DNA of 64,000 nucleotides from Heteronotia binoei (taxonomy: Eukaryota), in assembly GCF_032191835.1 (NCBI RefSeq), contig NC_083224.1, positions 130,324,001 through 130,388,000 on the forward strand. The letters are read 5' to 3'. The notes beneath the pieces are model-generated. The model did not search any database, was not told the DNA's origin, and was given only the letters and a program-made list of their open reading frames with translations. Of this stretch, positions 11,341-53,359 are shown piece by piece (positions within the stretch are counted from its first letter, which is position 1; each line of letters begins with the position of its first letter). The translations under genes and the position numbers were made by a program.

Positions 11341-11899
11341 TGTCACGTTCTCAGGGTGCAGGCAGGCAGGAGTCCAAAGCCAGTCCAAGGTCAAAGTCCA
11401 GGAAGTCAAGCAGGGGCCAAGTCACCAAAGTAAAATCACAAACCAGAATCAGAAGTCAGTGTCCAAAAGCCAAAGGGTAAGGGTACTAAGGAATTCAAGC
11501 AGGTCAGGATCTGGAATCAGGAAGGAGTGTGGATGCAAGCCAGGGAATCGACTTGCTGCTGCCACAAGGTTACCAGGTCCTGGTGGGAATTATATGGGAG
11601 CCTCAATCAGCCTGCTCCCTGGGTGGCAGCGACTCTGCTAGAACTCAGGGCTGAGAGATCTGAAGCATCAGCGTGCCTCATGTCTTCGCTCTGAAAATTC
11701 TTTCCAGAGCCTGCTTCAAATTCTTGAGATGGGAGGGGGAGACCTTGGAGGAGATTGATTGTCAACAGCCAGCACTGGTGCCTGGAATGTGGGGAAAGTG
11801 ATTGATGGGCCAGCTGCTGGTTGTTCAGCTTAGGAGCTGGCTGACAACTCTTCAAGGTCTGTTAACCCTTCCAGCTCCCACTCATCAGGGCTCATGACA
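11341..11899 (-). mobile_element. Ty3/Gypsy-type solo LTR (559 bp)
   Basis: TGTCA...TGACA termini; 5-bp TSD CCTTG at 11336-11340 and 11900-11904; TATA-like CATATAA on the minus strand; U5 end similar to the LTR at 40701-41283. Confidence 0.9.
11638..11895 (-). pseudogene. Decayed LTR U3 ORF, 86 codons, ending RSLSPEF-stop
   Basis: ATG at LTR position 5; one continuous frame with three internal stops (one TAA, two TGA compatible with CpG decay of CGA); homologous to the open frame at 40705-40923. Confidence 0.6.
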
Positions 11900-12565
11900 C
11901 CTTGCAAACAAGCATCCTCACCACAGTTGACTTTCACTGCAGAGATTATCTAGAAGAATCTGACTGCTGCCTGTGTTTGTAAGTTTTTCCCATCATAGGA
12001 GACAATGGGGAAGTGGGGGCAACCACTTTGGGGTCCCATAGAATTGGAACCTCTGGTCCTATATATTTTTTTGGAACTTGGTGGTTCCTTGGGGGACATG
12101 TTCCTGCAGCCTTGGTGCCTCTTCCTCAAACCACTTCTTCACCAGTGTCAATTTTCCCACAATGGGAAATGACACCTTTCCCTCCTGTCATAGGAAATCA
12201 TGGGGAATAGAAGAGGGTGCCCCTAGAACTGGATCCCACATCCAATCTTTTTTAAACTTGGGGGTTCTATGGTGGAGAGGCCCCTGCAGCTGCCCTGCAA
12301 CTTTGGGGCCTCTCCCTCAAACCCCTTCCTCCCCAGAGTCCATACATTATTCCAGGTGTGGCCAAACTGTGGCTCTTTCACACATATTGTGTGGCTCTTC
12401 TGAAGCCCCCATTGCCCTCTTGGCCAGCTTGGAGAAAGCATTTGTCTCTTTAAATCACTTGTCCAAGCCAAGTCAGCTGGCAGCTTGGGAAATGCGTTTA
12501 AAGTTAAAGTTGTTTTCTTTCTACCTCTCCCTCCTCATCTATTTGCTTCAGCGTGCTGGGGTGGG

Positions 12566-13190
12566 GGTGAAGGGAGCGATCCTGCCCATTCTCTCCCAGC
12601 CAGGCATTCTTTCCCCGTGCTTGGGTGCTTGGCTGGGAGAGAAGCAGCGAGATCGCTCCCTCCACCCCCACCCCAGCACGCTGAAGGTAGCGATCCTGCC
12701 CCTTCTCTCCCAGCCAGGCATTCTTTCCCCGTGCTTGGGTGCTTGGCTGGGAGAGAAGCAGCGAGATCGCTCCCTCCACCCCTACCCCAGCACTCTGAAG
12801 GGAGCGATCCTGCCCCTTCTCTCCCAGCCAGGCATTCTTTCCCCGTGCTTGGGTGCTTGGCTGGGAGAGAAGCAGCGAGATCGTTCCCTCCAGCCCCACC
12901 CCAGCACGCTGAAAGGAGCGATCCTGCCCCTTCTCTCCCAGCCAGGCATTCTTTCCCCGTGCTTGGGTGCTTGGCTGGGAGAGAAGCAGCGAGATCGCTC
13001 CCTCCACCCCCCCCCCCACCCCAGCACGCTGAAGGGAGCGATCCTGCCTCTTCTCTCCCAGCCAGGCACGCAAGCACGGGGAAAGCATGCCTGGCTGGGA
13101 GAGAAGTGGCGAGATCGCTCCCTGCGAAGTGCTGGGTTGGCGATGGGGGCAGAGGGAGCGATCTCGCCGCTTCTCTCCCGGGGGCTGCAG
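12566..13190. repeat. Tandem array of about 5.5 x 114-bp GC-rich palindromic units
   Basis: Units start near 12569, 12683, 12797, 12911 and 13031. Each unit has AGGGAGCGATC...GATCGCTCCCT and CTTCTCTCCCAGCCA...TGGCTGGGAGAGAAG arms. The 38-aa periodicity in the ORF track equals 114 bp. Confidence 0.95.
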
Positions 13191-28258: not shown

Positions 28259-29930
28259 AACTACTGTACATCTTGTCATCTAATGTTATTATAATGAGGT
28301 TTTTAAAACTCAAAAAGTAGCATTTGAAAATATTAAAATAAATTTTATGCTCCTATATTTAACAGTCTAGGAAAATTGTGAAGCTTATGCTCTGTGTGAT
28401 TGCTGGAGGCTACTGTGTTCCACTTTATAGAAACTTGGTTGAGACACTAATTGAGAAACGACGGAGCTCTTGAGGAAGACATCTTCGATAAAGCAAACAG
28501 AAAGTTTTGAAAGCATTTTAATTTGCTTTGGCATGGGATTTCCTTTTCTTTCATAGGCAGATTGACACTGCCATCAGCTGTTTGCTATTTGCATCCTATT
28601 GGTCAGCTAGCAAACAAGGAAGCACACCTAGACAAGAAAATGCCATATGGATGTATCAAATATGAAATAAACTCTCACTGACCTTACAAATGGTTTACCT
28701 AATTGTACCTATGGTTTAATTTGTGATATCCAAGGTGAAGAGTAGCTGAAAAAGAAGATGACATCAGCTCTACAAGCAGCTGCAACTGGGATAGCCCAAG
28801 AGGATAATTCATGTGCTGAAACAAGAGCAAATATCAATAAAGACAGCTTGTCTGGTTGTTCAGAAGCCTATGTCAATGGGACAGGTTCATCAGACAGCCT
28901 GTGTTGTGAAGTTCTGTTATCTGTCTTAATCATTTGTAAGGGGGAGGTGACACTTTGTTTCAAACAATGAGAAAAAAATGTGAAAATAGAGTAAGGTCTA
29001 CACAGAACAGAACAATTTGTCATATTTCACTCTTTTAGTACTCGTAAATGGCCAGTATTAGCCCCTGGCTGACCCCAATATTACCACACTGTATAGTCCA
29101 TAATTCAATTCATGCCATAACTATTCACTTAGGTAGAGTTAAGTGAGAATAAGTAATAATTACAAATGCAGGAGTTAAGTAATAATTTGCAAAAAATCAA
29201 ATCAAATTTGACCAGTTCAACTGGTGAAAACTTATAACAATTGGGGCTAGTTCCAAAAGTGATTTAGACAATGTGAATATACCTCTTGTTCTAAGGAACA
29301 TTGGGGTGAAAAGTCTTATGATGAATTATGGCAGCTGCACTTATTTCACTGGACCTCCTTCCAAGGTTAATGAACATATTATGTAGATTAAAGGGCAATA
29401 ACTGGGTGAGAACAGAGTGTACTAACACAGCTCACTTAGGAGGTAAAGAATGCCCAGTATAATCAGGTTCAGAGAACATCTTTGAGAAAAATACTATAGC
29501 AGTGCCAAATAACTTTGGGATATTTGACTACCATTTTGACCTACATGCGTTCCACTTCTTTTTATAAAGAAGTTCAGAACCTGAAGTTTTGAACAAATGG
29601 CTTGCTGTTATCTGGTTGAAATAAGAGCTACTTTAATTTAACAGCTCCTTCCTAAATTCTAGTGAGTAAACTATGGTCCATTCCATATCATGGCTTCTGG
29701 GTGCTATTTGCTTCATTTGGAGGAGATTCTCATCATGTCCCTACATTTGGAGAATGTGCATCTTCCCTTTCTGAAAAACTCAGATGGAATAGTGAGACAA
29801 AGAGACATTCAAGTTTTGGCTTTTGAGACATATCTTAACATCCAAAGCAGCTCCCAGACACACAAATGAAGTAAATGAGCTCTATTAAACCTGATGCCAA
29901 TGAGCCAAGTCAATGAGCTCTATTAAACCT

Positions 29931-31968
29931 AAGGCCTATGAGATGGCAATCAAATCCGCAAAGAAAGCGTACTTTGCGGCCAAGATTGCGTCTGCAACTT
30001 CACACCCGGCACAATTGTTTGATATAATTCGAGGATTTACAACGCTGCCGCAAGGCAGACCAAATTCTATTGAATTGGAAATAGGCTGTGAGGCTTTTGC
30101 GAAATTTTTTGCGGATAAAATCGCGTCACTCCGCCTCGACCTCCCTGCCAGCTTTGAGACAGTTAGCGAAACCGAGGCCCCGAGCCTGTCTTCAGATTTA
30201 ATTGTGGATGGCTTTAGCCCCCTCAGCCTGGAGGAAGTTGACAGGATTCTCTTATATGCTCGCCCAACAACTTGTAAATTGGACCCATGCCCCTCCTGGC
30301 TTATTAAATCTTTACAGAGGGACCTCAGATATTTTGTACGGGATATCATAAATAGATCCCTGACGGAAGGGCACTTTCCAACACCCCTCAAAGAGGCAGT
30401 GGTCCGTCCCCTTCTAAAAAAAATATCTTTAGACCCGGCCCAATTGGCACACTACCGGCCGGTTTCAAATTTGCCCTTTTTGGGCAAACTTATTGAGAGG
30501 GCAGTGGCGACGCAGTTACAGACTTTCCTGGAGGACGCTTCCGTCCTTGACCCATTTCAGTCCGGCTTTCGCCCGGGCCATGGGACAGAGATGGGGTTGG
30601 TTGCCCTGGTAGATGACCTTCAACGGCATCTGGATCGGGGTGGCTCAGCAGTGCTGATGCTGTTAGACCTATCGGCTGCGTTCAATACAGTCGACCATCG
30701 GTTACTGACTTGCCGCCTTGCCGACGCGGGGATTCAGGGGTTGGCCTTACAGTGGCTTTCCTCTTTCCTGGAAGGTCGGGGACAAAGGGTCGCGATTGGG
30801 GGGGAGCTATCCCGGAGGCGCACACTTGATTGTGGTGTGCCCCAAGGGGCGGTTCTCTCCCCGATTTTATTCAACATCTTGCCCTAAGGTATGGGCTGGG
30901 ATGTCACCAGTATGCTGATGACACCCAGCTCTATCTGCTTATGGATGACCGACCGGTCTGCACCCCAGAAAATCTGGATCGGGCATTACACGCCATGGCT
31001 GAGTGGCTCAGACTGAGTGGACTGAGGCTAAATCCTGCGAAGACAGAGGTCCTTTGCTTGGGTCATCAGGGACCGGGGGGGGGGGAAATCCCCCTGCCAG
31101 TTTTTGACGGTGCGCCACTGATGGCGGCGGACAGGGTCAAGAGCCTGGGGGTACTATTGGAGCCTTCTCTAAAGATGGAGGCTCAGATAGCAGCCACTGC
31201 CAAGTCTGCGTTTTTTCATCTTAGGTGGGCAAGGCAGTTGGCTCCCTTCCTGGATCGCGACGACCTAGCAACAGTGATCCATGCTACGGTCACCTCGAGG
31301 TTTGACTACTGCAATGCCCTCTACATGGGGCTGCCCCTGTGTCGAACTCGGAAATTGCAGCTGGTGCAGAACGCCGCGGCCCGGCTGTTACTGGGCCTCC
31401 CAAGATGGGGGCACATACTGCCGCGTCTTCGGGCTCTGCACTGGCTTCCAGTAATGTACCGAGTTTGATACAAGGTGCTGGTCATTACCTTTAAAGCCCT
31501 ATATGGCCTGGGACCTGCCTACCTGAGGGACCGTCTCTTCCCACATGTTCTCCAGAGAATACTGAGATCGGGAACCCAAAACCCTCTCGTTATCCCCGGG
31601 CCAAAAGAAGCCTACCTAAAATCCACCAGGGATAGGGCCTTCTCTGTTATGGCCCCTACATGGTGGAATAAGCTGCCGGAGGAGGTGAGGGCCCTGCGAG
31701 ACCTTGTTCAGTTCCGCAGGGCCTGTAAGACAACTCTCTTCCAGCTAACCCACACCTAGCTGATGAGAAACTAAACGTAGCTTTACCAGACTCCTGTTAT
31801 ATATTTTGCTGTGATATTTAATGTTTTTAATGTTTTTAATGTTTTAAATATTTTAAATGCTTATATATTTAAATGTTAGTCTAATTTTATGTTTGACTCT
31901 TTGTTGTAAGCCGCCCTGAGCCACTTTGTGGGAAGGGCGGGATATAAATCCTAAATAAATAAATAAAT
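29931..31968 (+). mobile_element. L2 LINE, 5'-truncated, RT region with frameshift/deletion
   Basis: ORFs 29913-30887, 30830-31468 and 31475-31759 give YRPVSNLPFLGK, QSGFRPGHGTE, LDLSAAF, GVPQG, YADD and LHWLPV; (TAAA)n tail. Confidence 0.95.
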
Positions 31969-39712: not shown

Positions 39713-40700
39713 CTTACTTGGTGACTTGTTGATTTTTTTAGTATCTTAAAAGTGGCCTTTGATACAGTTTCTAGAGCCAGGTTGTGGGGAAAGTTACAGG
39801 CTTCCACAGTTGATAGATGTCTGTTGTTTCTTATTTGGGCTATTCACGAGCAAACAGAGTGAGGTGCAGCCAATTAGGACACCTGACAGACCCCGTTCAA
39901 ACATTCAGGGGAGTCAGTCAGGGTTGCCTTTTAGCACGCATACTGTTTATTTTCTATATAAATAACCTAGTAAGTTTTATGAAAGACCCCAGATTACACC
40001 CCCCCACACACACAAACTAGCAGATCAACACATCCAAGTGCTATTGTATGCAGATGATGCCATAATTCTCTCCAGAATGCCTATAGGACTGAAATGGGTG
40101 CTGAAAAAGTTCTCCTTTTATTGTGAAATTGAACATTTTAAAATTAATTATCAGATAACTAGGATTATGGCCTTCAGGAAAAACACAAGAGCTAGGTACT
40201 GGGAGATTCAAGGACACCAGCTGGAACAAGTATCTAGTTTCAAATGCCTGGGAGTAGTGGTACAGGCTTCTGGTTCCAACACAATCCATAACAGCAGCGC
40301 CACTGATACAGGAGAGAAATCAATAAATAGTATCCTGACATTTTATTGGACTCAGGGGGTTACAGTGTTCCAGCTGCACTTCACCTGTTTGAAGCTAAGG
40401 TACTGACCCAGCTAACTTATGGAACATTTCTGGGATCTTCAGTTTCTTCCCTGTCCCTATTTGAGAGAGTCCAATCCAAATTTCTTAGAACATTAATCCA
40501 GTACCCAAGTGTGTATCAAACTCCTGGGTCCACTTGGAAACAGAAATGACTTGAGTAGAGGCTAGAATCTGTGTTCTTTCTATATATAAATGGGTCACTG
40601 GTAACATAAATCCTAAAGGGTTGTTCCCTCTTATCTTGCACGACGAATTTCAATGCAATTGGCTCCAAGCAGTCCAAAAAGCCATTAGGAAGTTGGGGTT

Positions 40701-41283
40701 TGTCCTGGGTGCTGGGGGCCCTGCAGAAGAAGCCGAGCCTGCAGAAGAAACTGTGCCCCTGCCACCTGCACCAGTGCCCCTGCCTCCTGCTGGAGAAGAT
40801 CCAAGCCCCCCTGCCTCGCCCTCTTGGGTGGCTCGTGTGCGTGACTGCCTTCGTCAGGACCTCAGGGATCGGAGGAGGACGGCACGCTCACGAGCAAGAC
40901 GCTCCCTGAGCCCTGAGTTTTGAAAGGATTCTGGCCCTTATAGGAGTGAGGGTGCTTGAGTCTCAGCAGGATCCTGGCTGCCCTCTGAGTCAGCAATTAG
41001 CCCAAATGGGCAACAGACAGCAGAGGGCTATATAGCTGTGGGCTTTGAGAGAAGGCTTTGTGGAAGCAACTAGTCACTTACCTGATGTTCTAGTATCCAC
41101 TTTGGCTTCTGGACCCCCTGACTCTGGCATTGACTTCTGGACCCCCTGACTTCAGCTTCTGAACCTCTGACCTACGATACCTGGACTGTGATTTGGTTTT
41201 GGTGCTTTGGACCCTCCTTGCTACCCAGCTACATACCTTGGACTGCCCCTGGACTTCGCCTGGCCTGGCCCCAGCCCGTGACA
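40701..41283 (+). mobile_element. Ty3/Gypsy-type solo LTR (583 bp)
   Basis: TGTC...TGACA termini; 5-bp TSD GGGTT at 40696-40700 and 41284-41288; TATA-like GGCTATATAG near 41030; CTGGAC/CTGAC-rich U5. Confidence 0.92.
40705..40923 (+). CDS. Open LTR U3 frame, 72 aa, Pro-rich then Arg-rich, ending RSLSPEF-stop (begins CTG, no ATG)
   Basis: Stop-free from LTR position 5. Same register and C-terminus as the decayed ORF at 11638-11895. Expression unproven. Confidence 0.45.
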   Translation: MGAGGPAEEAEPAEETVPLPPAPVPLPPAGEDPSPPASPSWVARVRDCLRQDLRDRRRTARSRARRSLSPEF

Positions 41284-41912
41284 GGGTTTCCCCTCCAAGC
41301 CCTTCTAAACTTGGCATAGACCAGGCAAAATCATGTTTTAAGCAGAGAGTGCTAGATATAGAAAGACAAACAGATATTCTCAGTTCCCTAGACTATTTCT
41401 CTTCAGCAAACAGTAGATACATAGTTGCTCCCACCCCCTACTTATACTTTACTGAATCTCACAACACTAGAAGGGCCTTCACTTTAGCTAGGAGTATGCC
41501 CCTGCCTTCTGTGGTTGTTGAGGCGAGATATAAAGGAACTCCTTATGCACTTAGGCTCTGTTCCTGTTCCCAGTCTGAAATAGATTCTCTGGAGCATATA
41601 TATTTTTAATTGTCCTTTTCATACGGCGAGCCGAAGGGAAATTATTAACCCGCTCCTGGAAGGGTTCCCTGGCAGATCAAATAAACTCAAATTAGATTAT
41701 CTCCTGTCAAATAGGAACCACAAACAACAAGACAGGTGAGTAGGTTCTGTTCCCAGGTTTATAAAGAATACAAAAAGCAAGACAAATAGGCCAAACTGTA
41801 AATCTTTTCACAAATGTTAAAGTGACTTTTTAAAATGGTTTAAAGGGTTAAATAATAATCTTTTAAATTCTTTTTTTTACTGTTATAACCCTCAAGTCAT
41901 CAAATTTTAAGT

Positions 41913-45154: not shown

Positions 45155-47845
45155 TTAGTTACCACATGGTGACTCAAATGCTAACTGAAAAAGAAATGTT
45201 TTGCAAGCCCTGCGGAATTGGTTCAGGTCCCGCAGGGCTCGCACCATCTCTGGGAGATCATTCCACCAGCGAGGGGCTATCACCGAGAAGGCCTGCTCCC
45301 TAGTGGCCTTCAACCTAACTTCTCTTGGCCCAGGGATTGTTAATAAGTTCTGAGAACCAGACCTCAGTGCTCTCCGGGGTACATATGGGGAGAGGCGGTC
45401 CTTTAGGTAGGCAGGTCCTCGGCCATATAGGGCTTTAAAGGTAATAACCAGCACCTTATAGCGAACACGGTAGACAACCGGCAGCCAGTGCAGATTGCAC
45501 AGCCCAGGCCGTGCAGGCTCCCACCGTGGTAGTCCCTCCAGCAGCCTGGCCGCCGCGTTCTGGACTACCTGGAGTCTCCGTGTTCGGTACAAGGGCAGCC
45601 CCATGTAGAGGGCATTGTAGTAGTCTAACCTCGAAGTGACCGTTGCGTGGATCACAGTTGCCAGGTCGGCGCGTTCCAGGAAGGGGGCCAACTGCCTCGC
45701 CCTCTTGAGGTAGAAGAAGGCGGATCTAGCAGTGGCAGCTACTTGGGCCTCCATTGATAGGGAGGACTCCAGTAGCACCCCCAGGCTCTTGACTTTGCGC
45801 ACCGGTACCAGTGGCACACCGTCAAAGGCCGGTAAAGTAGTCTCCCCTCCCGGTCCGCCACGGCCCACGCAAAGGACCTCAGTCTTCGCCGGATTCAACT
45901 TCAGCCCGCTCAGCCTGAGCCAGTCAGCCACGGCTTGTAGTGCCCGGTCCAAATTTGCTGGGACATCACCAGCCCGGCCGTCCATCAATAGATAGAGCTG
46001 GGTGTCATCTGCATATTGATGGCAACCCAGCCCATACCTCCGTGCAATCTGGGCAAGGGGGCGCATAAAGATGTTAAACAGCATCGGGGAGAGGACTGCC
46101 CCCTGAGGCACCCCGCAATGGAGTGGATACCTCTGAGACAGTTCCCCCCCGATTGCCACCCTTTGTCCCCGACCCTCAAGAAAGGAGGAGAGCCACTGTA
46201 AGGCTAGCCCCCGAATTCCTGCGTCGGCGAGGCGGCGGGTCAGCAGCCGGTGGTCAACCATATCGAACGCCGCCGATAGGTCTAACAACAGCAGTACTGC
46301 CGAGCCGCCTCGATCCAGTTGCCGTCGGAGGTCATCCATGAGGGCGACCAGGACTGTTTCTGTCCCATGGCCCGGGCGAAAGCCGGACTGGCATGGGTCT
46401 AGGACGGAAGCGTCCTCCAGAAATTCCTGTAACTGCACCGCCACGGCCCTCTCGATAATTTTGCCTAAAAAGGGCAAGTTTGAGACCGGCCGGTAATGTG
46501 CCAATTCGGCCGGGTCTGATGACGTTTTTTTCAGGAGAGGGCGGACCAGTGCCTCTTTCAGAGGTGTTGGAAAAACACCTTCTGAAAGGGATCGATTTAT
46601 AATATCCCGTATAGGATATCTTAGTTCCTCCTGGCAGGCCTTAATTAGCCAGGAGGGGCAAGGGTCCAGATCGCAAGTCGTGGAACGTGCAGTGGCAAGA
46701 ATTCTGTCGACTTCCTCCAAGCTGAGCGGGTCGAAGCAATCCAGAGTTGAATCAGAAGACACGCATTGGGCTTCGAGTCCACTTACTGCCTCCAAATTGG
46801 CGGGGCAGTCCTGGCGGAGCGATTGGACCTTATCCGCAAAGAATTTCGCGAAGGCCTCGCAGCCAATTTCCAATTCCTTAGCTTTAGAATTGCCCTGAGG
46901 CAATGTAGTCAGATTCCGAATTATTCTAAATAATTGGGCTGGGCGCGAATTTGCGGATGCAATCCTAGCCGCAAAGTATGTTTTCTTTGCGGCCTTGATT
47001 GCCATCTCATAGAACTTCATAAGCTTCCTATAAGATGTTCTAGTCGCCTCGTCACGAGTGCGTCGCCATTGCCTCTCTAGCCGTCTAAGGCCTTGTTTCA
47101 GCTGGCGTAATTCCGGGGTATACCACGGAGCCAGCTTAATCCGAGGTCGCAGAGGGCGCCGAGGTGCGATCTCCTCGATGGCCCTAGAGAGCCGGCTATT
47201 CCAGGTCTCAATCAGGCCATCAAGGGAGCCGCCAGAGGGCCAGGAGTCCCGCAGAGCCATCTGGAACCGTTCCGGGTCCATTTGACTCCGTGGGCGAGCC
47301 ATAATCGGCTCCTCGCCTAAACAGGTTCGGGGGGGCATATTCACACGGGCCTTGAGGGCGAAGTGATCCGACCATGGCACAACCTCTGTAGTTATATCGC
47401 TCACTACAATCCCGGCCGCAAAGATCAGGTCTAACATGTGTCCGGCCTGGTGGGTGGGGGTCGCAACGAATTGAGAGAGTCCCAGTGTCGCCATGGAAGA
47501 CACTAGGTCCGTCGCCTGACTGGAGGACGGGTCATCGGCATGGACGTTGAAGTCACCCAGGATTATCAGCCTTGGGTGCTCCAGCGCCCAGCCTGTCGCC
47601 GCCTCAAGCAGGGACGGTAAGGCGTTGGCCGGTGCGTTAGGCGTACGGTACACCAGCCAAATCGCCAACCCCTCTTCATCCCCCCACGCCAGCCCGGCAC
47701 ATTCAATGCCCTCAATCTTTGGGGCCGGGAGCGCCCTAAAGGAGTAAGCCTCCCGTGCAAATAATGCCACTCCTCCCCCCCGCCCGCTAGTCCGCGATTG
47801 GTGGAAGACCGAGTAACCTGGGGGAGCTGTTTGCGAGAGGGCCAC
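45155..47845 (-). CDS. L2 ORF2 (APE endonuclease, partial, plus reverse transcriptase), 896 codons without a stop
   Basis: GRGGGVAL, GDFN, LDLIF, SDH (APE); YRPVSNLPFLGK, LDLSAAFD, GVPQG, YADD (RT). Starts at GTG at the truncation point and lacks the APE N-terminus. Confidence 0.93.
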   Translation of the reverse strand: MALSQTAPPGYSVFHQSRTSGRGGGVALFAREAYSFRALPAPKIEGIECAGLAWGDEEGLAIWLVYRTPNAPANALPSLLEAATGWALEHPRLIILGDFNVHADDPSSSQATDLVSSMATLGLSQFVATPTHQAGHMLDLIFAAGIVVSDITTEVVPWSDHFALKARVNMPPRTCLGEEPIMARPRSQMDPERFQMALRDSWPSGGSLDGLIETWNSRLSRAIEEIAPRRPLRPRIKLAPWYTPELRQLKQGLRRLERQWRRTRDEATRTSYRKLMKFYEMAIKAAKKTYFAARIASANSRPAQLFRIIRNLTTLPQGNSKAKELEIGCEAFAKFFADKVQSLRQDCPANLEAVSGLEAQCVSSDSTLDCFDPLSLEEVDRILATARSTTCDLDPCPSWLIKACQEELRYPIRDIINRSLSEGVFPTPLKEALVRPLLKKTSSDPAELAHYRPVSNLPFLGKIIERAVAVQLQEFLEDASVLDPCQSGFRPGHGTETVLVALMDDLRRQLDRGGSAVLLLLDLSAAFDMVDHRLLTRRLADAGIRGLALQWLSSFLEGRGQRVAIGGELSQRYPLHCGVPQGAVLSPMLFNIFMRPLAQIARRYGLGCHQYADDTQLYLLMDGRAGDVPANLDRALQAVADWLRLSGLKLNPAKTEVLCVGRGGPGGETTLPAFDGVPLVPVRKVKSLGVLLESSLSMEAQVAATARSAFFYLKRARQLAPFLERADLATVIHATVTSRLDYYNALYMGLPLYRTRRLQVVQNAAARLLEGLPRWEPARPGLCNLHWLPVVYRVRYKVLVITFKALYGRGPAYLKDRLSPYVPRRALRSGSQNLLTIPGPREVRLKATREQAFSVIAPRWWNDLPEMVRALRDLNQFRRACKTFLFQLAFESPCGN

Positions 47846-48245
47846 TGTAGGGAAAGTGTTCCAAACCTTTAATCATTCTAGTTGCCCTTTTCTGGACTTT
47901 TTCCAATGCTATAATATCCTTTTTGAGGTGTGGTGACCAGAATTGTACACAGTATTCCAAACGAGACCGCACCATCAATTTATACAGGGGCATTATGATA
48001 CTGGCTGATTTATTTTCAATTGTCTTTTGGGAGCAGAGGAGAGCCAGGCTGCTTTCACATTACCATTCTAAACCAGTTGTTAACTTTTGTTGGCCTGATT
48101 CTGAGTAAAGTGATACAGGGATGGGGATTTCATACAAGAAACTGTATCCTGTTAATGAGCTGTCTTTGAAGTGCTATGGCCATTTCAAAATGTGTTTCCT
48201 CCACCCTTTGTTGCCATGTGATCTTCCTTCCCCTTTCCCCCCAAC

Positions 48246-48631
48246 GGTCAAGTGCCTTGTCATTTTTGTTAAGAATAAACTTTGCTATCTCATCACTGCT
48301 GCTTTGCTGTGCTGCTGCTCCACTTATCTCTTTGCAAGTTATCCAAATTCTTTCCAGCTGGCTAAGGGATACCAAGGCTGCGCTGATAGCCAAGATGCAC
48401 CTGGGAGAAGACATGAGATGTCTTGGGAAGAGGGATAGATGCTTCCTGCATTTTGCTTCCCACTTGCTTTTGAAATAGTAATGGATTAAGGTAGCCTATA
48501 TAAGGGGGCAAGTTGCCTGCCTTGCCAGTCTTGACAAAAGCCATCACGCCTGTAACCTGTTGTCAAGAGTCAATAAACAGCCATTTATAAAGTGGACCAT
48601 TTGTGCTCTTTGAACTATGGGAGTCTTGACA
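48246..48631 (+). repeat. 5' LTR of the Gypsy element
   Basis: Colinear with 52967-53359; ends CTTGACA; first base is G instead of T. Confidence 0.92.
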
Positions 48632-49421
48632 TATTGTGAAGACTCCTTTATCCTTGGAATGCCTTACCACCACTGACAATGTTGGAGGATGAGAAGGTCA
48701 TATCTAAGAACATACAAACTGACCCAATCGAACCAGAAGTGCCCAAGCCAGAAGGGCCAAAGCTCATGCCTAGGTTTGTTATGACTCAGAGGAGCAAGCG
48801 AGGTTTGAGAGGTTTCATGGAAGGGGAGGAGAGGAAAACAATGGCCAGGCTCAGTCGCCCTCATTCCTCGGGATTGCAGGGAGAATATTGGGCTTGGGGG
48901 TCTGACGATAAAGCAGAGGGTTCTATGAGAGGGGCTTCATTTGGTCACCCTGGTGAGGGCCCGCCCAACTAGCTGCAAGAGAGTCTATTGGCATACAGTC
49001 AGCACTTGAGAAACAAGATGCTCACCATGAATGATTACGTACTTTATGCGAGAGGTGAGGACAGTCGCCTAAGGGACACTCAGCTAAGGGAACTAGTTGT
49101 TCAGGTCACTGGGGCGCCACCAACACAGCCACCAGCTGCCACCCCTCCTGCTCCAGATGGGGGGTACCTCTGCCACCACCACCAGATGGGGGAGGCCAAC
49201 CGGTCCAGCCCACTCAGCCACTCCAACCAGTTGCCCCCCAGAACCACACTTTACCCCGAGGGGGTCCAAAGGTGTGAGGCATGGTTCAATAGGCACCCCA
49301 CCAATTTGAGATATTTCCTGGTCCAAATCAGGGGCCACCTTCAAATATGGGTTAACAATTTCCCTACCGAGGCCAAAGTCATCTACATTGGGGGGATGCC
49401 TTCAGAGAGCTGCCACGGATT

Positions 49422-50771
49422 TGTAAGCCAAAAGACCCTCAAAAGAGGTTGGGGAATTGACAGGTGGGCACCTTTGGCTTAAAAAGGATCTAGAATCTAT
49501 GTATACAGGATTCCACTTCCAGAAATCATTGCTTAAATTTACCAAGGACACTAATTAAATAAAAACAATTAAAAATTTATTGTAGAAAAATACAGAACAC
49601 ACATACAAGGTAATGAATACATATAACACACATATAGTCCTAATAAAAATAGAGATAAATGCATAGAGGTAACATAAGGATGAACAAACAGGGTGATAAT
49701 TACTGATCGTAGTCTTCAAGGAAGGCTCCAATGGTGACAAAAAAGAACTAGGGGGAAGGGACCCTCAACTGATCAGGAATCGGGGATGTATCTAAACAGC
49801 AGGAATGGAGTACTGCTAGATGCACACCTGTGGGGAGCTGGGTCACAGGTTATAAGGACTACCTTGAGCCCTTAGGAGATGGGAGGTACAGGGGTGGATG
49901 ACAGGTGGTCAGCTGGTACATGACCTCAGAAAAAGGGGAGGCTCCGCAATGACCATACGGGCTGGACTTATGTGGTAGCCAATAGCCAGTTTATTGGGGG
50001 CACGTGATTGGATGCCCATACCTGGCCAATGAGCAGACTTGGCCCTGGTTACCTGATTGGACTTCCAGGTAACAATGGGCCAAGCGGGAGGCTCCAGGAT
50101 GGACCATTAAGGGAAAGAATGGGTGAAATTATTGGGGTGGAGGTGATTAAAGCTATCAAAACTTATCTAAAAGGCGACAATAGATGGCCAAATTGCTACC
50201 TAAGGTAGCACCCAATCTATACAAAGGCACTTGGCTCTAGGTGAAGATGTTCTTCCTCCTCTTCATTCCTCTACTGGCCCCAGCCTTTGTTTTGGGTTCC
50301 ATTGGACAAAGGCTTAGGCAGTCTGACAGGATTCATGCCTAAGATAAGCTTGATGGCCTTATGCATAGGTGACATATGTTGAGTACGTGAGCCTCCCACT
50401 TCATTGTAATGGAGTCTGGCACTGCAGGAAGATAGCTGCTGGTGATGTTAGCCTTCCCATATGGATTCTATGGTTAAGGCTGGAAACCGCTTGCCTGGAC
50501 AGTTCCTGGCGGTGCACCTTCTTCCGCTGCAACGGCCGAGATGGTGATCACATGGAGCGACCGGAAACCCATCTGTTCTCCTGGTTAGCACTTTTCTGGA
50601 GACACGGAGTGCTGCTGCAATGTTGTAGCTATTTGTACTCACATAAGTCCCTACATTCTGGTAGACAAAATCCATGTTCTCCTGGCAGATGTGTGTGAGT
50701 TGAATCTCCAGGCACCCTGGCAACCAAACGGGTGACTACAATGTTCTGAAATTAGGGGTCTTTTTCTCACA
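49422..50771 (-). mobile_element. 1350-bp TGT...ACA insert in gag, most likely a long solo LTR in antisense orientation
   Basis: 4-bp TSD GATT at 49418-49421 and 50772-50775; about 17-bp imperfect terminal inverted repeats; gag rejoins across it (ATD-WYVTL); CCAAT, TATA-like and AATAAA motifs in order on the minus strand. Confidence 0.8.
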
Positions 50772-52966
50772 GATTGGTACGTTACCCTATACAAGTCACA
50801 CTCACCTGCCTTAGATTTGGCCAGAGGCCTTAAGTGAACAATTCAAAGACCCCTTGCAGGAGACCAATGCTATCTCTGCTCTCCACGACTTAAAGCAAGG
50901 TGCAAAATTGGTCTGTGACTATCTGGTGGAGTTCCAATTCTTGAATAGCAAAGTGCACCATTGGGACTCTGGGGCCCAGGTAAAATAGTACAAGAGGGGG
51001 CTCAACTCAACACTATTTGAGGAAGCATTGGCCATGAGGAAACCCAGACTCTAGTTGGGTGGATTCAACTAGCTTGGGAGATAGAGGACCAGCAGAAGGT
51101 GGTAGCACTCCACCAAAAGCAACAGGGAGCCCCTAGTCCCCAAGAGACTAAAGACAGAGGGGGAGAGAAGGGGGCTCCTCACAAGCCCACCCTCACCCCC
51201 AGTGAGAAAGAGCAGCACGCTGAGAATCACTTATGCTTCTAGTGCAGGAAGGGGAGAACCATGTCGCCAATGAATGTCCCAGCACCCCACGGGGGGGCAG
51301 AGGTCCTGGGGGTAAAGAAAGGGGACCCAAAGAAAAAGCCTCCTCAGCTGCAAAGGGAGGCACAGCCTTACTCCACTATGTGGAGCTGAAAGCCGAGAAT
51401 TCAGGGGAGTAGAGCAGAAAGACTCGCTGGCAGGAAAAGCCAATGACCTGCTGTGAAAAGTACACACCAGCAGGTCGCCGCAATTGCTGTGCCACTATGG
51501 GTGAGAACTTCCGGGACTTTTTATTTTATCCCATCACCCTAGTAAACCCAGAGACCAAAAGGTTTATGAGTGTGCAAGCCTTATTAGATTCAGGAAGTTC
51601 CGGGGGGGGGCTAGGGATGGACCCTGCTGAAATACAAGTGGTGGTGAACTGGGCAGCCCCCCAGACCTGCAAACAACTCCAAAGCTTCTTCGATTTTGCA
51701 AATTTCTATAGAAACTGCATCAATAACTTTGCTTCCCCCTCACCAACCTTTTAAAAACTAAGGGGAAAGGTGCAGAGACTCAAAAGCCTGAGGTCTGCCT
51801 CAAATGGCCCCCTAGCTGCCAGGTGGCCTTCAAAGAACTCAAGTGACTGTTCACTTCTGAGCCGATCCTTATCCATCCTGATGAAAACAAAAAGTTTGTG
51901 GTGCAATGTGACGTAAGTGATGTAGTCCAAGCAGCCATCCTGCTCCAAGAGGGGCAGGATGAGAAGCTGCACCTTTGCACTTATCTCAACTCCCCACCAC
52001 AAAGAAACTAGCCCAGTTTTTCTTACAACACATTGTTAGACTCCACTCAGTCCCGGCCAAGGTGATATCTGACAGTGAAGCTCAGTTCGTTGCCAATTTC
52101 TGGATTCAAGTGTGTAAATTAACAAGCATTGAACAGGGACTAAGCTCTGCCTATCACCCCCAAACAGACGGGCAGACGGAGCACACGAATGGGGTGCTCA
52201 AGTAGTTTCTCCGATGTTATGTGTCATTCCAACAGGACAACTGGGTTTCATTACTGCCGTTTGCTGAATATCCATATAATAACAGTGTTCATAGCTCTAC
52301 CAACGCTAGTCCGTTCCTGATTGTTAATGGGTATGAAAGGAAACCATTCCCAGAACTGCCGGGAGGCCCCAAGAATGCCAACTCCCCTGACTTTACCGAT
52401 TGGTGGCAGTCCATAGCCTAAGGCTGAACAATGATCCAAGCTGAACTCAAGAGAGCCAAAGGGACTTACAAAAATACCACGATAAACAAAATTCTAAACT
52501 TTGGGAGCTTAAAATGGGCGATACAGTTTACATCCCCATCAGAACTTGCCTAATTCAAAGCCTTCAAAAAAGTCGGGACTAAAGTACTTGGGGCCATTCC
52601 CCATTAAAGGGATTATTAATAATGTTAATATTGAACTTGAACTGCCTAAAGCACTAAAACATGTCCACCCTTGTTTTCATGCCATCCTCCTCAAGCATGA
52701 CCCTGGACCTTCATCTTGGCACCCACAACTGACTGCTCCAGCTCCAACTCTAGTGTGGGGTCAGATTACTTTGAATTCCAAAGCATTCTGAATTCCAAAT
52801 GGAAAAGGGGTGAACTTTACTATCTCATCAAATTGACTAACTTCCCCATTAGCCAAGCAGAATGGGTGAAAGCTTCAGACACAAACAGCCCAAGGCTAAC
52901 CAAAGACTTCCACAGCTGCTTCCCAAATAAACCAGGGGGAGGGTGAGGGCTTGGGTGGGGACAGTA

Positions 52967-53359
52967 TGTCAAGTACCTTGCCATTTTTGTGAAGAATAAA
53001 CCTCACTGTCTCATCGCTGCTGCTTTGCTCTGCTGCTGCTCTGCTTATCTCTTTGTAACAATTATCCAAATTCTTTCCATCTGGCCTGGGAAATTGCTAC
53101 CAAGGCTGCACCAATAGCCAAAATGCACCTGGGAGGAGATGTGAGATGTCTTGGGGGGTGGGATAGATGCTTCCTGCTTTTTGCTTCCCACTTGCTTTTG
53201 AAATAGTAATGTATTAAAGTAACCTATATAAGGGAGCAAGTTGTCCACCTTGCCAGTCTTTGCAAAAGCCGTCATGCCTGTAACCTGTTGTCAAGAGTCA
53301 ATAAACAATCATTTATAAAGTGAACTATTTGTGCTCTTTGAACTATGGGGGTCTTGACA
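52967..53359 (+). repeat. 3' LTR of the Gypsy element (393 bp)
   Basis: TGTCAAG...CTTGACA, with TATATAA and AATAAA inside. Confidence 0.93.

Follow-up and report, generated by a model that had tools for sequence, protein, structure and literature searches.

What does a solo long terminal repeat (LTR) encode when it reads open from its fifth nucleotide to a terminal peptide that is shared with a second, strongly diverged LTR in the same stretch of DNA? The question was raised by 64,000 nt of the Heteronotia binoei genome (GCF_032191835.1, contig NC_083224.1, positions 130,324,001–130,388,000, forward strand), the whole of which is referred to here as the window. The initial annotation, made from the sequence of the window, had proposed a conserved small protein encoded inside U3 of a Gypsy LTR family. 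The two LTRs are composed as follows.

40701–41283, plus strand: solo LTR of family A, 583 nt, TGTC...GACA, with the 5-nt target duplication GGGTT at 40696–40700 and 41284–41288.
40705–40923, plus strand: U3 stretch that forms the last 72 Pol residues and the stop when located in a 3′ LTR; a relic here, with CTG as first codon and no pol upstream.
41029–41034, plus strand: TATA box, downstream of the coding stretch.
41060–41069, plus strand: self-priming sequence, located some 30 nt past the TATA box and able to pair with the primer binding site in full-length copies (11-nt complement in copy L154).
11341–11899, minus strand: solo LTR of family B, an older family, 559 nt, with the target duplication CCTTG.
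11638–11895, minus strand: homologous tail frame of family B, 85 codons from LTR position 5 plus TAG, with three internal stops in this copy.

Both were classified as solo LTRs because each is flanked by a 5-nt target duplication, and the tail frame was placed in U3 because the TATA box lies downstream of the coding stretch. The family A LTR was confirmed to read open from position 5, with 72 codons at 40705–40920 ending in RSLSPEF, TGA at 40921–40923 and the GGGTT duplication on both sides. Its description as an open copy was misleading, since this solo LTR has neither an upstream pol nor a start codon and is thus a non-coding relic. For family B, the register from position 5, the RSLSPEF end and the TAG stop were found as first described, whereas the copy contains one internal stop more than had been quoted and lies on the minus strand, which had not been stated.

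First-look searches of the genome gave 2875 candidates for family A and 3018 for family B, 40 of which were scored in each case. The codon at LTR position 5 is ATG in 192/194 family A and 40/42 family B LTRs collected, and in most copies of a third family, C, which ends in SP[E/D]Y-TAG; in the LTR counts, the 5′ and 3′ LTRs of one element were counted separately. Among copies with the in-frame terminal motif, the frame was still open in 177/183 of family A and 9/32 of family B, and the terminal stop codon was TGA in all 183 and TAG in all 32, respectively. The internal stops of family B were TGA in 28/34 cases, matching the expectation from CpG decay. Copies of the element are spread over many large contigs.

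The element is a self-priming Tf1/sushi-group chromovirus (Ty3/Gypsy), as assigned by domain order, chromodomain, self-priming and LTR ends. Full-length copies are about 5.5 kb long, with gag and pol in different frames. Pfam analysis of the L154 pol identified protease, RT, RNase H, integrase, SH3 and chromodomain in one frame, the chromodomain lying behind the integrase (PF00385, E = 3.4e-13, residues 1088–1136 of 1231), and no Pfam family matched the tail. The binding site behind the 5′ LTR of L154 is complementary over 11 nt to LTR position 369, 30 nt behind the TATA box, and self-priming instead of a tRNA site is given as a Tf1/sushi-group feature in the available text of PMC6317226. The LTR ends TGTCATG...CGTGACA fit the sushi-type ends TGTYANR...CNTNACA in the portion of PMC3601003 that holds its Table 3. 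The nearest named proteins come from geckos. Gag plus pol, the chromodomain behind the integrase, the self-priming site and the LTR ends are all as in the Tf1/sushi group; the difference is a Pol that here extends by 72–85 codons into the 3′ LTR, where it terminates in a conserved phospho-type motif.

Further repeats were observed in the window. A decayed full-length chromovirus of another family occupies 48247–53358, with an LTR pair 87% alike and pol remains at 51617–52928; its chromodomain frame ends some 20 nt short of the 3′ LTR, and that copy therefore has no tail. Endonuclease/RT frames at 45155–47872 (minus strand, open for 905 codons) and 29904–31468 (plus strand) are of what we take to be LINE type. 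Tandem units of 114 nt with internal inverted arms at 12545–13179 are open in several frames and probably represent a non-coding mobile element or satellite.

The stretch very probably constitutes the last 72 codons of pol, a selected tail that runs through the polypurine tract into the 3′ LTR. In young full-length copies, a single frame passes from protease through RT, RNase H, integrase and chromodomain into the G-rich tract and the LTR start, and stops after S-P-x-aromatic. Copy L063 is open for 476 codons from integrase to the motif, its tract and LTR start reading Gly-Gly-Gly-Asp-Ser-Val-Met. L154, with identical LTRs and a target duplication, has a pol of 1231 codons that extends some 230 nt into the 3′ LTR, and the 1228-codon pol of L155 does likewise. 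Reverse transcription copies U3 into both LTRs, so that 5′ and solo LTRs carry the tail sequence without coding use.

The tract–LTR junctions were collected with a pattern that left the G-run length free and was hence unbiased by frame; it gave 1046 matches, the first 100 of which were scored. The run had 10 G in 55 junctions, 9 in 32, 8 in 7, 11 in 4 and 7 in 2, the 10-G form being the mode, with 57/100 junctions in frame and 43/100 out of frame. Full copies were taken from 60 of the first 62 junctions, two tandem neighbours being skipped. The 10-G in-frame junction was present in 31/51 copies with LTRs at least 99% alike, the remaining 20/51 being out of frame, and 27/42 copies with at least 1100 open pol codons had an in-frame junction. 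Frame state was not clustered on the copy tree (19 changes vs a shuffled mean of 19.9); out-of-frame junctions are scattered over it, and losses therefore recur at the tips. Replication slippage during reverse transcription, host slippage and assembly error may each account for these losses. The roughly 40% of young copies that are out of frame, together with the many tail-less relatives, argue against a strict requirement for the tail.

In the window's own older subfamily, 7/28 junction rows (6/27 distinct places) were in frame, though the query was in frame; an earlier count of 28/30 loci reading to the motif is not usable as a frequency, since that query itself held an in-frame junction. 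With a chromodomain anchor, 4/14 readable junctions of family B (20 places examined) and 1/3 of family C were in frame. Given these low counts, continuity is shown only for family A, and we infer it for families B and C because they share the tract and the LTR start. The continuous frames of L063, L154 and L155 and the junction counts support a read-through extension of pol, one of the possibilities raised in the initial annotation, and the continuity across the polypurine tract that was to be checked in full-length elements holds in most young family A copies.

Polyprotein frames extending into the 3′ LTR have been described in plant CRM group A (CR motif/CHDCR; PMC3059260, PMC3605345, PMC6317226) and in some Reina-clade elements (Bingo1–4 and 7; PMC3059260, PMC3605345), and the LTR of CRM group A encodes a targeting motif, according to the available text of PMC3059260 and PMC3605345. 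The earlier statement that U3 frames are not standard for Ty3/Gypsy elements thus needs softening. CRM elements carry the CR motif instead of a chromodomain and are primed by tRNA-Met, whereas the lizard element has a canonical chromodomain before the tract, the tail behind it, and self-priming. For vertebrate chromoviruses, no description of Pol running into the 3′ LTR was found in the literature searched, which included the available text of PMC3601003, PMC4131045 and PMC6317226, with Repbase entries, subscription Sushi/chromovirus papers and supplements outside its scope.

The tail is divided into three parts.

40705–40806, plus strand: acidic, proline-rich linker of 34 codons, predicted to be disordered, with a length that varies in three-base steps (in L063, 7 residues are acidic and none is basic).
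40825–40905, plus strand: predicted basic amphipathic helix (residues 124–150 of the 155-residue L154 model mapped here; block pLDDT 84–95, single-sequence model).
40900–40923, plus strand: terminal motif R-S-L-S-P-E-F and stop, a candidate phospho-dependent ligand of tandem BRCT domains, under the binding rule given in PMC4728184 and PMC6015222.

New here is that the stop codon directly follows R-S-x-S-P-x-[F/Y/W], as it also does in fish-type relatives from a separate branch. Named Pol proteins of fish (Salvelinus, Coilia, Oncorhynchus, Astyanax) show a Gly-rich stretch and Val-Thr, which are the translation of tract and LTR start, followed by an RSSSPVY, RSLSPDY or RSLSPEY end. With a query lacking tract and tail, S-x-x-[FYW] ends were found in 13/150 representatives, many of the other rows being gene models fused to host exons. 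Eleven of the 13 fall among 24 short read-throughs, a class defined by pattern after the data were seen, vs 2/1192 internal 4-mers; the other 13/24 short read-throughs lack the motif end, including the nearest non-lizard rows P0021 and P0030. Among 15 fish-type ends, rows that had been picked for the motif, Arg is at −3 in 14, Ser at 0 in 15, Pro at +1 in 14 and Tyr/Phe at +3 in 15, and several ends are literally S-P-V-F.

At the DNA level, L218 (1 of 53 metagenome loci) shows the frame continuing through the tract to an end 91 nt past a TGTCAC start, and its LTR was recognised from the tract and this start, as the locus holds no second LTR copy. The motif serine codon is TCT in L218 vs AGC/AGT in the lizard families. 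The frame stops 11–13 nt before the LTR in 13/53 metagenome loci, and several others read through to different ends; with so many relatives lacking it, the motif is dispensable for the group. A pattern search for the junctions of other families gave 7 matches, one of them real, vs 17 in the control, and a query of chromodomain plus tail among longer proteins gave 17 matches, all via the chromodomain. Within family A, 39/183 LTRs end in Trp, which departs from the pSxxF rule; they belong to one young subfamily (L097, L099–L118, L154), the linker of which is three codons longer.

In a tree of about 190 integrase-end residues (unrooted; 54 rows picked from 163, mostly unnamed), the lizard pair, 13 fish-type rows and 3 SEE[F/Y] rows formed three separate supported groups with motif-less rows between them. 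Constraining lizard and fish-type rows together was rejected (AU P value = 0.0016, for groups named after a first tree). The three motif groups would fit convergence as well as retention with many losses on this unrooted tree. The SEE[F/Y] group (P0010, P0012, L263) has an acidic tail with SEEF or SEEY at its end; in L263, the region ahead of the stop showed no polypurine tract, and LTR-encoding is therefore not claimed for this group.

Because pol runs through the polypurine tract into the 3′ LTR, the stretch would form the tail of the integrase. The single-sequence model of the sister copy L154 places a single confident helix between a disordered linker and the last five residues, which lie free outside the helix, and the last 38 residues include 11 Arg/Lys in the predicted helix. 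At the end, conservation covers Arg at −3, Ser at 0 and Pro at +1 together with the aromatic residue at +3, and the stop codon comes immediately afterwards; an S-x-x-F/Y sequence is present, predicted to be accessible, with a +3 carboxylate expected to be free. The tail is likely to dock onto a host protein, for which a tandem-BRCT protein of DNA repair is the leading candidate. The mature integrase would keep this tail, in which a flexible acidic linker leads to the basic helix and then to R-S-x-S-P-x-[F/Y/W] as the free C-terminus, and a proline-directed kinase would phosphorylate the motif serine. The pS-x-x-aromatic-COOH end could then bind a tandem BRCT pair, of BRCA1 type by sequence, with MDC1, MCPH1 or PAXIP1 also possible, and this docking would tether the integration complex to chromatin or call repair to the new insertion.

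Tandem BRCT domains such as that of BRCA1 bind pSer-X-X-Phe by two anchors, a free +3 carboxylate adding a salt bridge, as stated in the available text of PMC4728184 and PMC10386641. The key resources table of PMC6015222 contains the peptides GGSRSTpSPTFNK (BACH1), pSPVF-COOH and KKATQpSQEY, and SRSTpSPTF and pSPVF-COOH match the fish-type and lizard ends position by position. Ser at 0, an aromatic residue at +3 and often Pro at +1 are shared with the BRCT ligands BACH1/FANCJ (SRSTpSPTF), pSPVF, Abraxas (C-terminal pSxxF) and gamma-H2AX (pSQEY-COOH), Arg at −3 with the BACH1 peptide, and the free C-terminus with Abraxas and H2AX (PMC4728184, PMC6015222, PMC10386641, in the parts available). 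The lizard motif differs from these host ligands in that it lies on a transposon protein, as a candidate ligand by its sequence, and in that one subfamily ends in Trp. BRCT genes are present in the lizard genome, one exon being identical to that of Gekko MCPH1; among the BRCT exons recognised there, the pair of BRCA1, which matches better by sequence, was not found. MDC1 reportedly requires the free end of gamma-H2AX, according to the title of one study cited in PMC10598736, and the end of Cdc27 presumably resembles SEEF.

Docking on a tandem-BRCT protein is the single most likely mechanism, at a probability that keeps it tentative, and the other uses of the helix and the phosphosite, taken together, are as likely. 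The motif is short, and Ser-Pro after Arg would also fit ordinary kinase sites, which speaks against docking. Equally tentative is the wider proposal that lizard RSLSPE[F/Y/W], fish-type RSxSPx[F/Y] and SEE[F/Y] perhaps had three independent origins, LTR-encoded in two of the three, and that the phosphorylated C-terminus would mimic Abraxas, BACH1 or gamma-H2AX and hijack a host tandem-BRCT protein to target or repair insertions. An internal BRCT motif in the ERVK integrase is predicted by motif scan only in the available text of PMC8303831, and a BRCT-ligand reading of any retrotransposon integrase end was not found in the literature searched.

There is a considerable chance that the Pol tail acts otherwise, the helix binding DNA or nucleosomes or being a nuclear localisation signal, and the Ser-Pro being a regulatory phosphosite or binding a non-BRCT partner. 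Candidates for such a partner are Pin1, 14-3-3 and a C-terminal-end reader. The 11 Arg/Lys of the predicted helix and the tolerance of Trp at the end are consistent with this possibility, as are P0021 and P0030, rows near the lizard elements with long acidic tails made by read-through and a motif-less basic end. An AT-hook-like [RP]GRP core is located between chromodomain and polypurine tract in 15/15 fish-type motif bearers (P0004, P0005, P0006, P0016, P0029, P0044, P0049, P0053, P0061, P0068, P0081, P0096, P0138, P0151 and P0159) and is absent from the lizard copy P0002, so that the helix may stand in for the AT-hook. Left unexplained by these other roles are the stop directly after the Ser+3 aromatic residue in three separate branches and the motif kept in helix-less fish-type tails of 16–43 residues.

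It is improbable that the frame gives, also or mainly, a separate protein of 72–85 residues from the position-5 ATG, made by stop–restart behind pol where the tract puts a TAG just before the LTR, from a spliced RNA, or from host transcripts through solo LTRs. The ATG is nearly universal in the LTR counts given above, the pol stop sits 4 nt before it with 8 or 11 G, and RNA reads cover the LTR better than any other part of the element. These reads numbered 430, 1191 and 396 in three raw runs (two of one sample), in both mate directions, with thin coverage of the whole element and higher coverage of the LTR part, by which an element-driven transcript is not demonstrated. However, the ATG belongs to the terminal inverted repeat, the integrase recognition end TGTYANR (PMC3601003, in the part available), and fish relatives mostly have Val-Thr or Val-Arg at its position. 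The TATA box is also located downstream of the frame, and the three raw RNA runs showed no splice joint in the approximately 6% of each that was read, at a depth of only about 1–40. A stand-alone gene was rejected as well, with no homologue of 41–132 residues at E ≤ 1 (22 candidates; a weak result) and no Pfam family.

HIV nef, MMTV sag and foamy bet are separate U3-overlapping genes on spliced RNAs. The lizard coding sequence likewise overlaps U3 and is so copied into both LTRs, but the tail is in frame with pol in most young copies. The suggestion of an accessory protein like nef, sag or bet was not borne out, given an ATG within the integrase recognition end, Thr or Arg in fish relatives and no splice joint at low RNA depth; the proposed check for a splice acceptor yielded no joint at that depth and, instead, continuity with pol.

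Similarly unlikely is that the polypurine G-run is a slippery switch, with length changes in each replication round giving integrases with or without the tail as a tolerated or useful mixture. G-runs of 8–11 are seen even where the two LTRs are identical and pol is otherwise open, the variation is found in every young subclade, and two 6-base runs are invariant in 43 and 52 readable copies. Slippage or misassembly is expected to be much more frequent in a run of 10 bases than in one of 6, and no out-of-frame clade is larger than four older rows, both of which weigh against a switch.

Selection on the frame was assessed by comparing the families. Over the last 38 codons, families A and B are identical at 0.56, 0.70 and 0.31 of first, second and third codon positions (1279 pairs of natural copies), with pS 0.73, pN 0.385 and pN/pS 0.52 (codon bootstrap 0.35–0.75), in a protein-guided alignment with one codon gap that favours the tail frame somewhat. 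The A–B dN/dS was 0.20 in the tail frame vs 0.94 and 3.15 in the other two sense frames; the antisense frame sharing third positions gave 0.34, the expected shadow. A pN/pS of 0.57 was obtained for both A–C and B–C, and 0.17 for the chromodomain (20 pairs), indicating that the tail is far less constrained. Indels common to at least four LTRs were multiples of three in 2/2 cases inside the frame and 0/12 outside, and private indels inside the frame in 8/23. Within families, tests of shared vs private substitutions pointed in the same direction, were underpowered and reached significance in no frame (lowest Fisher P value in the coding frame, 0.18). The protein-level purifying selection first proposed is thus upheld, also in the comparison with the other frames, and the third positions are not conserved equally with the first and second. 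Conservation through a DNA or RNA motif in U3, such as a promoter element, is largely refuted and very improbable: families A and B share the nine bases for Ser-Pro-Glu and the comparison depends on a protein-guided, once-gapped alignment, but third positions are almost saturated, family A stops with TGA and family B with TAG, and the fish-type L218 uses the other serine codon group.

The stretch is therefore a real, selected coding sequence, the integrase tail of a known retrotransposon group and not a new accessory gene. Its seven-residue end, kept or re-invented across fish and lizard elements, makes a specific and cheaply testable prediction and bears on what, beyond the chromodomain, directs the integration of vertebrate chromoviruses. 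If BRCT binding is true, a transposon would here be imitating the DNA-damage signalling code, a connection not found in the literature searched. Even without BRCT binding, thousands of solo LTRs in the lizard genome carry a coding relic, and annotations that end pol at the LTR border lose the end of the integrase.
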